Shown: in pieces, positions 46,087 through 47,667 of the stretch
Numbering within the stretch: position 1 is the first letter of the stretch
Layout of the letters: each line of letters begins with the position of its first letter
DNA from: Escherichia phage BananaBelafonte
Sequence record: PP925845.1
Strand: one strand, 5' to 3'
DNA length: 51,510 nt
Translations under genes and position numbers: made by a program
The notes under the pieces: generated by a model
Seen by the model: only the letters and a program-made list of their open reading frames with translations
Database searches by the model: none
What the model was told of the DNA's origin: nothing

Positions 46087-47667
46087 TCACCCCAACAAAG
46101 CCGGATTCACAAACACACGCCCATTGATAACGCACACATAATTCCTTTCTTCCAGCATTGGCAAAAGATTCTCCTCAATGCGTTTCATGATCCCAGCTTG
46201 CCCCAGGAAAGGCTTAATCTTGCGTGCGGATTCGTAAATCGCGCGAACGTTCAAGATCCCTTTATTGGCTTTGCCGTGGCGCGTGATAATGTCGATTAAC
46301 TTGCTCATTTCGGCATCGTCGCCAGCGTGACCGGAAGCATTCGCCGCGCTAATGTAGGTTTTGCTTAACTCCTGGAACATCAAGAGCGCCTCTTGCATTG
46401 TCTCTAATTCAATCTCACGAGCTTTTTGTGGCGATCCGGTTTCGTTAAACCAGTTGCGGATAACGTGCAGAACGGAAGCAATGCGGATCACTTGTTTATC
46501 CATTTTACCCAGCGCACCGCGCAACATGGTATGCGAGAATTTGCCGCCGTCAGCGAGATCTGGCTCCATTTCCTGACGAGCACGGTTTAAGCAACGCATC
46601 GCCGCTTTGCTGATCTTCAATGAAACGTCTTGCTCGCTCATGATGTTATGCACCAGTTGGTAATATTGCGCTTTCAGTGTCGGATCTACTGGCTCAAATG
46701 TTGAATCGCCCTCGTCGTCAATAAAGGTACGACGACCCAGGAATGACTCCTCACGAACCAGCAGGAAACGCTCTGATACACCGATGCCGCGCGAACCAGC
46801 TTCCATGATGCCGTTAATAGTTTCATCCTGTGCGATTACGCTCATGCAACCCAGGGCTTTAAAACTCATGTTGTTTTCGGCGTTAGCACGCGCGATAGAA
46901 ACATGCCCCGCATCCCACGCTTTAAGCACCAATTCGCTGTTAGTCTTGCGCTCGCTATTCGCGTAAGTCAACCCTAACAGGCTGTTAATACTGGTTGCCT
47001 CGTCCGAGATTACCGCAAAGTTGCCCTGGCGGTTGTTGATTTTCGCCAAACCTTCTGGCGTGGTATCGGAAACCGGAAACACGATATCGCACATTTTCAG
47101 GAGCTTTTCTTCTAACTCCTCTTTCTCCTCATAGAGCGATGCCATATCAGCGCCGGATTTCTCCGCTTTCATTTCTTTAGCCAGGCCAGCCAGTTTTGCC
47201 AGAATCTTTTTGCGCTCTTTCTTGCGTTGCTCGTTGATTCGCTCAACTTCGCAGACCATCGGGGCAATCGCCAGGCTGTTAATCGCGGATTTACCAGTAG
47301 ACGGCGGCTGGCTTGTCACAACGTAGAGCGCCGTTGGCTGATCGGTTCCGTGGTAATCCACGGTAAAGCGTCCGAGCATCGCGGCAGACACGCAGCCTAC
47401 AAAGTGCATATAGGCAGACGAGGCCGGAAACTGGACTGACTGCGCAATGTTGCGTGACAGCTTGCCTACAACGTCAACGTCATTTCCGAGTGAGATCACA
47501 GGGTAGCGATCATTTCCGGTGTTAATGTCCTGGACTTCACCCCAAAAGCTGGAGGATTGACGATAACCATTTGCCCCGATTGCCACGCGCACAGGTGAAA
47601 GACCTTGCGTTTCAGCCATTGCGATAACTTGTTGTGGGGTAAGTTTGTTAGTGTCAAAGTCAAACAT
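46087..47667 (-). CDS. large P-loop-like protein (526 aa), possibly replication-associated
   Basis: Strong RBS AAAGGAG; Walker-A-like PPSTGKS; Lys/Glu-rich coiled segment; family resemblance (DUF3987-like) is a tentative recollection. Confidence 0.5.
   Translation of the reverse strand: MFDFDTNKLTPQQVIAMAETQGLSPVRVAIGANGYRQSSSFWGEVQDINTGNDRYPVISLGNDVDVVGKLSRNIAQSVQFPASSAYMHFVGCVSAAMLGRFTVDYHGTDQPTALYVVTSQPPSTGKSAINSLAIAPMVCEVERINEQRKKERKKILAKLAGLAKEMKAEKSGADMASLYEEKEELEEKLLKMCDIVFPVSDTTPEGLAKINNRQGNFAVISDEATSINSLLGLTYANSERKTNSELVLKAWDAGHVSIARANAENNMSFKALGCMSVIAQDETINGIMEAGSRGIGVSERFLLVREESFLGRRTFIDDEGDSTFEPVDPTLKAQYYQLVHNIMSEQDVSLKISKAAMRCLNRARQEMEPDLADGGKFSHTMLRGALGKMDKQVIRIASVLHVIRNWFNETGSPQKAREIELETMQEALLMFQELSKTYISAANASGHAGDDAEMSKLIDIITRHGKANKGILNVRAIYESARKIKPFLGQAGIMKRIEENLLPMLEERNYVCVINGRVFVNPALLG

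Follow-up and report, generated by a model that had tools for sequence, protein, structure and literature searches.

A predicted DUF3987-family, MCM-like helicase of a T1-like phage and the two small genes downstream of it

Gene order and start signals at the locus

The window analysed here is the whole 51,510-nt sequence of Escherichia phage BananaBelafonte (PP925845.1), which is a complete T1-like (Drexlerviridae) phage genome. In an arm rich in small early genes of unknown function, a 526-aa open reading frame is followed on the same strand by two smaller genes (Table 1). Two positions upstream of it is a gene homologous to that of the Mokosh type I trigger of SECphi27.

Table 1. Coordinates of the features discussed in the text (positions in the window)
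Feature	Position	Strand	Remarks
DUF3987-family MCM-like (SF6) AAA+ DNA helicase, 526 aa	46087..47667	-	Predicted activity; family, fold and motifs in the text
20-nt conserved motif, AATAGCACTTTTTGTTAAAA	47722..47741	-	Directly 5' of helicase gene; contains TGnTAAAAC, extended -10-like element
10-bp stem-loop, UUGUUGCCGU / loop / GCGGCAACAA	47685..47711	-	Between 20-nt motif and Shine-Dalgarno
Shine-Dalgarno AGGAG of helicase gene	47677..47681	-	Read from sequence; 9 nt before ATG
Walker A / P-loop, Q120-PPSTGKS-127	47287..47310	-	PPSTGKS, residues 121-127
Lys/Glu-rich antiparallel helical hairpin, aa 128-191	47095..47286	-	Insert after P-loop helix
Walker B, A218-VISDE-223	46999..47016	-	End of strand E217-221 (model)
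Beta-hairpin before sensor 1, aa 254-270, with R260	46858..46908	-	Strands E255-258 and E267-270
S298-E-R300-F301, putative arginine finger	46765..46776	-	Before strand E301-305; compare MCM 'SRF' motif
C-terminal winged-helix domain, aa ~446-526	46090..46332	-	Model
130-aa partner (PHROG 2794)	45690..46082	-	Directly 3' of helicase gene
64-aa ORF (PHROG 9539)	45569..45763	-	Third cassette gene; starts inside partner's 3' end
Primase, T7 gp4/P4-type zinc ribbon	36998..37957	-	Pfam Zn_Ribbon_Prim, E=8e-13
SF2 helicase	38536..40539	+	Pfam ResIII and Helicase_C
VRR-NUC nuclease	40539..40952	+	Pfam VRR_NUC; translationally adjacent to SF2 helicase

The 526-aa gene is found in 919 phage records, compared to 834 for the 130-aa partner and 449 for the 64-aa ORF. 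Its Drexlerviridae orthologues are 52-99% identical over their full length, have identical neighbours and the same upstream motif, and show no substantive difference. They are annotated as 'DNA helicase', 'putative helicase', 'YfiJ' or 'DUF3987 domain-containing protein'; examples are KLB26 XDR03693, PaulSarasin bas09_0050, SECphi27 gp11 and AAS23 gp49. The KLB26 copy is 99.4% identical to ours and is annotated as hypothetical only.

The strong ribosome-binding site that the first-pass annotation had seen before this gene is indeed present, and the KLB26 annotation places a ribosome-binding site at the equivalent position. Further upstream, repeat analysis brought out the 20-nt motif, which occurs 20 times in the window compared to 0.04 copies expected, with every copy oriented like its flanking genes. 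The motif is kept at the equivalent position in KLB26, PaulSarasin and SECphi27 and probably marks the promoter of the helicase transcription unit. As a sigma-70 consensus scan upstream of the helicase gene called no promoter, the 20-nt motif included, this promoter function is something we only infer. The stem-loop that follows has a folding energy of -14.6 kcal/mol (RNA fold, z = -4.5; none of 200 shuffles folds as well), and its stem is retained in SECphi27 despite changes on both arms. It may be a hairpin in the 5'-UTR or, at the DNA level, a palindrome around a TATTAT hexamer.

Downstream, the 130-aa ORF adjoins the helicase gene as previously described, but the two do not overlap. The helicase reading frame ends with TTG GGG TGA (stop at 46089-46087) and is followed by TTTA and then ATGATG at 46082; TTTAATG does contain a 'TAA', but out of frame. 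The gap thus measures 4 nt if the first ATG is taken as the start and 7 nt if it is the second. The latter (46079) is the start in most homologues of the partner (MFLLDLY...) and is likely the true start here. Among 78 related loci the spacing ranges from 0 to 10 nt, so that the tight coupling of helicase and partner is real; in SECphi27, the annotated partner start overlaps the helicase stop by 4 nt. In all 78 evaluable loci, the partner is the next gene after the helicase.

The third gene, the 64-aa ORF (PHROG 9539 match, E=5e-25), is read in the +1 frame with respect to the partner, whose last 74 nt it overlaps. Full-length tblastn matches extend down to around 40% identity, and the ORF is found in 77 of the 78 loci, where its relative frame never differs. 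Its ATG and a GGAGA-like Shine-Dalgarno sequence lie within the partner's 'IGEMSDEELF' codons, and these overlapping start signals explain part of the conserved motif in the tail of the partner. Judged from the sequence, the helicase, 130-aa and 64-aa genes form a three-gene cassette. The two-protein unit proposed in the first-pass annotation accordingly stands as far as adjacency goes and has to be widened by one gene.

Family, fold and catalytic motifs of the 526-aa protein

The 526-aa protein matches Pfam DUF3987 (PF13148), a family that had been suggested for checking, with E=9e-42 and 143.9 bits, far over the gathering cut-off of 27. The match aligns residues 81-432 to profile positions 3-352 of 364, and all 23 aligned homologues also match DUF3987. 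A PHROG 'DNA helicase' match is even stronger (E=1e-243), and an NCBIfam search of the protein gave no match. The gene is an already catalogued DUF3987-family MCM-like ring helicase of T1-like phages, an ordinary one and no new kind of system.

In the structural model, a helical N-terminal domain (aa 1-97) precedes an AAA+ core with a hairpin insert and a lid (aa ~98-410), followed by a helical linker and the C-terminal winged helix. We scored invariance in an alignment of 23 homologues, down to 35% identity (A1). The Walker-A-like segment seen earlier lies between strand E115-119 and helix 126-168 of the model, and Q120, P121, P122, S123, G125, K126 and S127 are all invariant. In Walker B, S221 and E223 are invariant, I220 nearly so, and at D222 some homologues have A or E instead. 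The Lys/Glu-rich stretch (around residues 140-195), previously called a coiled region, is modelled as a long alpha-helical hairpin made of H126-168 and H172-191. As this insert falls within the contiguous Pfam match, it is a family-wide feature rather than a peculiarity of BananaBelafonte.

Two further elements resemble the anatomy of MCM proteins. The beta-hairpin at aa 254-270, with an invariant R260, directly precedes strand E273-279 in the model. The pre-sensor-1 beta-hairpin of MCM contacts DNA and, given the MCM-like fold and textbook MCM anatomy, the hairpin found here may be its counterpart. Likewise, E299 and R300 are invariant, S298 and F301 nearly so, and in the model this site would correspond to the arginine finger of MCM-clade AAA+ proteins.

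The structural neighbours of the model are AAA+ proteins and not RecA-type proteins, and the model has the MCM-type AAA+ fold with a beta-hairpin before sensor 1. The link to MCM is seen by fold comparison only: neither PF00493 (MCM) nor another AAA+ family of Pfam matches any of the 23 homologues at E<=10. A PDB sequence search with the single protein and with the 23-sequence profile likewise gave nothing meaningful, with no MCM and no DUF3987 structure. Compared to MCM, the protein lacks the OB-fold/zinc N-terminal tier, residues 1-97 being modelled as short helices only, and has an extra helical hairpin of around 65 aa after the P-loop helix. Judging from the model, the protein is related to MCM at the fold or superfamily level only. 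It carries no DnaB or DnaB_C Pfam domain and is not of the DnaB type (SF4).

MCM translocates 3'->5'. In contrast, AgaPH, a PriCT-DUF3987 protein of Seonamhaeicola and the one characterised DUF3987 helicase, is ATP-dependent and runs 5'->3' (PMC11724360), and the MCM analogy should therefore not be taken literally.

The DUF3987 family includes AgaPH, phage N4 dns and E. coli CP4-57 YfjI, and our protein matches its Pfam model over the full length, hairpin insert included. Both Walker motifs and a small C-terminal domain are shared with the family; a primase, either fused or encoded next door, accompanies the gene in several relatives. AgaPH carries a PriCT domain in addition. The T1-like protein is fused to neither PriCT nor a primase and instead has its own helical N-terminal domain of around 97 aa. 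It also differs from other DUF3987 proteins in its lineage-specific pair of small downstream genes and in the distance to the primase gene, which is around 8 kb away.

The DUF3987 protein among the replication genes

DUF3987 proteins have been described as SF6 MCM-like hexameric helicases with a C-terminal wHTH and are predicted replicative helicases of phages; for the N4 member dns, an essential role in replication has been reported (PMC4889955). AgaPH interacts with its primase-polymerase and is inactivated by mutation of Walker A or Walker B (PMC11724360), motifs that our protein shares. Primases also recur among the relatives. For example, relatives from the same subfamily carry a fused DnaG-type zinc ribbon (P0257) or a fused NrS-1-type primase-polymerase domain (P0352). 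In a third relative of this subfamily (P0288) the DUF3987 core is fused to a DnaB N-terminal domain, which is absent from the window protein. In distant relatives, the DUF3987 gene comes first in a contiguous module followed by primase, SF2 helicase, nuclease, exonuclease, annealing protein and SSB. In one such locus (L004), the primase homologue is downstream of the DUF3987 gene with one small gene between them.

A primase and another helicase encoded elsewhere had been mentioned in the first-pass annotation, and both are present. The primase, annotated as DNA primase in relatives, is not adjacent to the DUF3987 gene, which departs from the usual family arrangement; it is presumed to be the working partner of the DUF3987 helicase. 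The SF2 helicase is 33% identical to that of L004, which comes after the DUF3987 gene and the primase, and its pairing with VRR-NUC is typical of recombination or fork processing. The genome also encodes SSB, an exonuclease VIII-like protein and ERF. No DnaB-like helicase, SF3 helicase or DNA polymerase is evident among its large ORFs; TLS and T1 are likewise reported to have no DNA polymerase (PMC11447400).

A replication role of the DUF3987 gene is well supported. Because the other helicase is an SF2 enzyme paired with VRR-NUC, the DUF3987 protein is most likely the fork helicase rather than an extra factor. Furthermore, because the phage lacks a DNA polymerase and yet encodes a zinc-ribbon primase and SSB, this helicase most likely works in a hybrid replisome, in which the phage helicase, primase and SSB would join host DNA polymerase III. 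Our best explanation, to which we give a probability of around 0.7, is that the 526-aa protein is the DUF3987 MCM-like fork helicase of the T1-like phage, served by two small accessory genes. Its direct basis is family membership, fold, catalytic motifs, gene linkage and the primase fusions or adjacency in relatives; the distant primase, the preference of genome papers for the SF2 helicase and the lack of an origin near the gene count against a fork role.

Mechanistically, the protein would very probably assemble as an MCM-like AAA+ hexameric ring. ATP would be hydrolysed at inter-subunit sites formed by K126, D222/E223 and R300 from the neighbouring subunit, and single-stranded DNA would be drawn through the central channel by the pre-sensor-1 beta-hairpin (R260). 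The C-terminal winged helix and the helical N-terminal domain would be free for DNA or protein contacts. For the T1-like members, helicase activity, oligomeric state, polarity and essentiality are extrapolated from the family.

We weighed three other explanations. The protein could be an origin-binding initiator, whose winged helix and AAA+ ring recognise and melt the phage origin in the manner of P4 alpha, SaPI Rep or lambda O/P. Host DnaB would then take over and do the bulk of the unwinding together with host Pol III. The C-terminal winged helix does resemble the origin-binding domains of initiator-helicases and ORC/Cdc6, the winged-helix partner could serve as an origin adaptor, and the phage relies on a host polymerase that is normally coupled to DnaB in E. 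coli. We nevertheless consider this explanation unlikely. A search for tandem, direct and inverted repeats found no iterons or origin-like repeats within or near the helicase gene, and the GC skew, which tracks transcription, shows no switch near it. The fusion partners known in the family, primases and the DnaB N-terminal (primase-binding) domain, favour a fork role alongside primase, and a phage with its own primase usually supplies a matching helicase. In addition, AgaPH unwinds forked DNA processively enough to score as a helicase (PMC11724360). In the literature searched, we found nothing on the dependence of T1 on host dnaB/dnaG or on the DNA-negative genes 1 and 2.

Alternatively, the SF2 enzyme could be the main replication helicase, with the DUF3987 protein in an accessory part during recombination-dependent replication, restart or repair. 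The SF2 enzyme is encoded divergently beside the primase and a regulator, T1-like genome papers usually label it the replication helicase, and T1-like phages have a full recombination set (exonuclease VIII-like protein, ERF, SSB). This assignment is nonetheless very unlikely, since replicative helicases are ring helicases of the AAA+ and RecA classes (PMC4889955), the SF2 and VRR-NUC enzymes are better candidates for branch or fork processing, and fusions to primase and DnaB_N are known for the DUF3987 protein and not for the SF2 one. Both helicases are also co-conserved in distant relatives, which argues that neither is a dispensable decoration.

Finally, a host-takeover or anti-defence ATPase, with the 130-aa partner as a transcription factor merely sharing the operon, would fit the neighbourhood of small early genes that includes the Mokosh type I trigger homologue and a partner fold common to many transcription regulators, but is highly improbable given strictly conserved catalytic motifs of a translocating AAA+ ring, family-wide associations with primases and replication modules, no match to defence or anti-defence models (PADLOC) and no similarity to known takeover proteins. 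The first-pass annotation had proposed an additional replication or host-takeover factor and had itself named clear orthology to a core replication protein as evidence against that idea. Such orthology is what we find. The replication part of the proposal holds, while 'additional' and takeover were probably the wrong emphasis.

For annotation, the fork helicase reading means that the likely fork helicase of T1-like phages is the MCM-like DUF3987 protein and not the SF2 enzyme near the primase. T1-like phages often turn up as laboratory contaminants, are candidates for phage therapy and serve as standard test phages in work on defence systems; little work has been done on their replication machinery. 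For structural studies of how an MCM-like motor would work with a bacterial polymerase, the DUF3987 family is a reasonable target.

The two small downstream proteins

In T1-like phages, the helicase travels with two small uncharacterised genes. The 130-aa partner is modelled as an N-terminal winged-helix domain (aa 1-75) followed by a poorly ordered tail, with a functional core of around aa 1-111, and this winged-helix protein is found in T1-like phages only. The linkage to the helicase suggests that both small proteins are helicase accessory factors, acting in loading, origin targeting or regulation. The support for such a role is this linkage, the winged-helix fold being generic and shared with many transcription regulators.

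Several ideas about the partner were set aside. It gave no significant hhalign match to the helicase's own winged helix, of which it might have been a copy, or to the small ORFs beside DUF3987 genes in L003 and L004; its 'MSDDEFY' likeness to a 75-aa ORF of L004 is a chance match of 7 residues. It is not the 128-aa Mokosh trigger of SECphi27, where the escape mutation (nt 6995) maps to gp13, two genes upstream of the helicase. An apparent helicase-partner fusion in Vibrio phage Vc1 (P0112; BFVD hits 7-8), which would have been a Rosetta-stone link, combines a duplicated helicase segment with a truncated partner and is therefore an assembly or annotation artefact.

Small proteins of around 100-130 aa encoded beside a helicase, as is the 130-aa partner, are familiar from other systems: G39P of SPP1 is the loader of G40P, and Cnr of P4 is an inhibitor of alpha. 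In G39P, a folded N-terminal part is followed by a disordered C-terminal one. No sequence or fold similarity of the partner to a known helicase loader (DnaC, lambda P, G39P) was found. More speculatively, and with considerable doubt, the trio could be a self-contained module for loading or regulating an MCM-like ring helicase in a bacterial virus: the small proteins would position the helicase on phage DNA or hold it back there, and would link it to the host Pol III replisome. If so, they would be the first dedicated accessory factors described for bacterial DUF3987/SF6 helicases.

The cassette would be transcribed from a motif-marked start of its own, with the two small genes translated closely one after the other. 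In PaulSarasin, the next copy of the 20-nt motif lies just past the 64-aa ORF.

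The DUF3987 helicase and its family

The minus-strand gene for a 526-aa protein described in the first-pass annotation is present, with an AGGAG ribosome-binding site 9 nt before its ATG and the Walker-A-like segment PPSTGKS at residues 121-127. The suggested Pfam search gives DUF3987 as the sole match (E = 9e-42), with residues 81-432 aligned to nearly the entire model. In PHROGs, the protein falls into family 2373, 'DNA helicase' (E = 1e-243). RefSeq labels orthologues in many T1-like phages 'DNA helicase', and genome papers on relatives already call orthologues putative DUF3987 helicases (for example, AAS23 gp49). 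The gene itself is already known, its product being a standard member of a family annotated in T1-like phages. The remaining biology of interest is the role of two small co-translated proteins and the T1-like replisome.

Kazlauskas, Krupovic and Venclovas (2016) assigned phage DUF3987 proteins to the SF6 (MCM-like) helicases as divergent members. They pointed out a wHTH at the C-terminus and that the proteins are often fused to, or encoded beside, AEP or DnaG primases, reported the N4 member (dns) as essential for replication, and concluded on a replicative-helicase role (PMC4889955). AgaPH (PriCT-DUF3987), purified in 2025, is oligomeric and binds its own primase-polymerase. With ATP or dATP it unwinds DNA that is 5'-tailed or forked, moving 5'->3', and it loses activity when Walker A or B is mutated (PMC11724360).

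Using 23 homologues (35-92% identical) for both the AlphaFold2 model and the motif alignment, we obtained a confident model of the helicase (mean pLDDT 87.2, pTM 0.86). By sequence, no PDB entry is detectable and no MCM Pfam match appears up to E<=10; therefore, the kinship with MCM is at the level of the fold only. The invariant and near-invariant residues (Table) sit where an MCM-type motor needs them, with the hairpin, finger and sensor positions predicted by comparison with the MCM fold and standard MCM anatomy. In the model, the Lys/Glu-rich region, first read as coiled, forms a long helical hairpin (aa 128-191). Since this hairpin lies inside the contiguous Pfam match, it is a general DUF3987 hallmark and no peculiarity of BananaBelafonte.

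The family comprises 6187 representatives at 50% identity (3737 with E<=1e-10), around 100 of which are stand-alone proteins of ~520 aa like the window helicase. Among metagenomic relatives from outside the window, the 869-aa P0257 carries an N-terminal DnaG-type CHC2 zinc ribbon and DUF6371 fused to the DUF3987 core, and its match to the window helicase profile begins at position 9. The DUF3987 core is fused to a DnaB N-terminal domain in P0288 (666 aa) and to an NrS-1-polymerase helix-bundle domain in P0352. In P0288, an AAA+ motor is combined with the domain through which a RecA-type helicase binds primase.

Features of the helicase cassette and of other regions of the window (nucleotide positions, or residues for helicase motifs)
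Feature	Position	Strand	Remark
Helicase gene	46087-47667	-	526 aa
Partner gene	45690-46082	-	130 aa
64-aa ORF	45569-45763	-	PHROG 9539
20-nt motif, copy upstream of helicase	47722-47741	-
20-nt motif, example sites	1219, 1536, 2639, 4826, 6144, 10318, 38459, 40948, 42432	+
20-nt motif, example sites	18655, 47722, 49835, 50324, 51120	-
10-bp stem-loop	47685-47711	-	-14.6 kcal/mol, z = -4.5
Primase	36998-37957	-
SF2 helicase	38536-40539	+
VRR-NUC	40539-40952	+
373-aa protein	43036-44157	+
878-aa ORF	34361-36997	-
63-nt tandem repeat	36216-36485		4.3 copies, 84% matches
G+C minimum	28001-30000		0.41-0.45
PHROG 2684 ORF	47982-48413	-	143 aa from first ATG
Walker A	Q120-PPSTGKS		invariant in 23-homologue alignment
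Walker B	I220-SDE223		E223 invariant; D222 varies in some homologues
Predicted beta-hairpin directly before sensor-1 strand	R260		invariant
Predicted arginine-finger position, directly before next strand	S298-E-R300-F		E299 and R300 invariant
Lid	R383, G384		both invariant

The partner and a third, overlapping gene

The 130-aa ORF reported beside the helicase gene is found directly downstream of it. What the first-pass annotation observed is right in all but one respect, namely the overlap of the helicase stop with the partner start. The helicase frame ends GGG TGA at 46089-46087, followed by four bases (TTTA) and then ATGATG; the TAA taken as the stop is out of frame. Most partner homologues begin MFLLDLY, which corresponds to the second ATG in the window. 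Despite the absent overlap, the tight coupling of the two genes is real: of 80 IMG/VR loci encoding the partner, 78 had upstream DNA, and all 78 have the helicase C-terminus directly upstream, with 0-10 nt between the helicase stop and the partner ATG in these loci. The two genes as annotated in SECphi27 share 4 nt.

The partner is placed in PHROG 2794 (unknown function); searches of Pfam, NCBIfam and PADLOC gave no match. It occurs in 107 database clusters and 834 phage records, all of T1-like origin, and a BFVD search matched T1-like orthologues only. Its distribution is narrower than that of the helicase (834 versus 919 phage records), and helicase relatives at 35% identity have different small ORFs in its place. 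Residues 1-75 are confidently modelled as a winged helix and the remainder is poorly ordered. Some records use the name 'YdbL', a label passed from record to record that finds no support here. An apparent helicase-partner fusion in Vibrio phage Vc1 (P0112, 345 aa) contains a duplicated helicase segment joined to the first 53 partner residues, and most likely reflects faulty assembly or annotation rather than a natural fusion.

The proposed two-protein unit stands for the adjacency of helicase and partner. It does not stand for the number of genes, because a conserved 64-aa ORF overlaps the last 74 nt of the partner (45690-45763) in the +1 frame, making a cassette of three genes translated in close succession. 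Across 449 phage records, this ORF is conserved from end to end, with identities as low as about 40%. It is present in 77 of the 78 loci, where its frame relative to the partner never changes and the overlap measures 17-146 nt. The codons for 'IGEMSD(E/D)ELF', a conserved segment of the partner, also contain the ATG of the ORF and a Shine-Dalgarno of GGAGA type; thus, conservation of this tail 'motif' is due in part to overlapping translation signals. Past ELF, the partner tail is wholly different between clades or ends at once. We conclude from these comparisons that the functional core of the partner spans about residues 1-111, the tail being mostly a read-through across the start of the 64-aa ORF.

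Sequence elements flanking the cassette

The window contains 20 copies of the 20-nt motif AATAGCACnnnTTGyTAAAA, where 0.04 would be expected. The motif lies in intergenic positions on both arms, and every copy shares the direction of the local genes. The copy just upstream of the helicase is kept there in KLB26, PaulSarasin and SECphi27. In PaulSarasin, the next copy immediately follows the 64-aa ORF, so that motif copies enclose the three genes as a single unit. The cassette of the window ends against convergent lysis genes. A TATnAT hexamer within a GC-rich palindrome often follows ~22 nt after the motif. The motif has the look of a promoter or regulatory element specific to the phage, and a sigma-70 consensus scan does not call it.

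A 10-bp stem-loop separates the motif from the helicase Shine-Dalgarno, and its stem is kept in SECphi27 despite changes on both arms. Two alternatives may be considered. The motif includes TGnTAAAAC, which resembles an extended -10; used as such, it would place the stem-loop at the mRNA 5' end. Alternatively, the TATTAT hexamer in the loop would serve as -10 and the palindrome as a DNA site. The sigma-70 scan called neither sequence upstream of the helicase.

Probable replication role and genome context

The 3-kb stretch around the helicase gene is 94.8% identical to Klebsiella phage vB_KM5a1-KLB26 and 75-88% identical to many Escherichia, Salmonella and Klebsiella phages of Drexlerviridae (T1-like siphophages). 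PaulSarasin and KLB26 have the same gene order as the window throughout. Judged from this similarity and gene order, the 51.5-kb window represents essentially a whole T1-like phage genome.

In two loci of distant relatives (L003, 7681-17569; L004, 7787-17373), a DUF3987 gene with 35-36% identity to the window helicase heads an uninterrupted operon, followed by a small ORF, a zinc-ribbon primase, an SF2 helicase, a nuclease-sized ORF, recombination (exonuclease/annealing) genes and SSB. The operon primase is related to that of the window (E = 2e-12 over the zinc ribbon), and the SF2 helicases share 33% identity. All these parts are found in the window but split between two arms. The primase and second helicase, correctly placed elsewhere by the first-pass annotation, lie with an HTH regulator and VRR-NUC about 6-10 kb from the helicase gene; farther to the left are an exonuclease VIII-like protein, ERF and SSB.

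The large ORFs of the window show neither another ring helicase nor a DNA polymerase, and TLS and T1 are reported to be without DNA polymerase (PMC11447400). Most simply read, the DUF3987 protein would be the fork helicase, working alongside the primase of the phage and Pol III of the host, and the SF2/VRR-NUC pair would act in recombination or fork processing. T1-like genome papers usually name the SF2 enzyme 'the' helicase. It is possible that the DUF3987 protein is instead an initiator recruiting host DnaB, which would fit the winged helix and the dependence on host polymerase; nonetheless, two points speak against it: no iterons were found near or inside the gene, and primase and DnaB_N fusions occur among family relatives. 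A role purely as an accessory helicase in recombination is less likely, since AAA+ ring helicases with fused primases typically work at forks. The earlier suggestion of host takeover, or an anti-defence role, has no support, with no hits from PADLOC.

Elsewhere in the genome, the 373-aa protein has a sigma-70 region-4-like HTH at residues 14-41, an odd combination with the labels of its orthologue in relatives ('DNA repair exonuclease' or 'DNA polymerase II small subunit'); it might be a DNA-binding phosphoesterase. The tandem repeat lies inside the 878-aa ORF, the counterpart of the PaulSarasin lateral tail fibre gene as judged by position relative to the primase. The G+C minimum of the genome (~0.50 elsewhere) lies between the tail-tip and exonuclease genes. 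Finally, the PHROG 2684 ORF, two genes upstream of the helicase, probably starts at M12 with a real length of 132 aa. Its product is 58% identical to SECphi27 gp13, a 128-aa protein of unknown function that is toxic when expressed with Mokosh and in which an E7 frameshift leads to escape from Mokosh type I (bioRxiv 10.1101/2022.08.27.505566).
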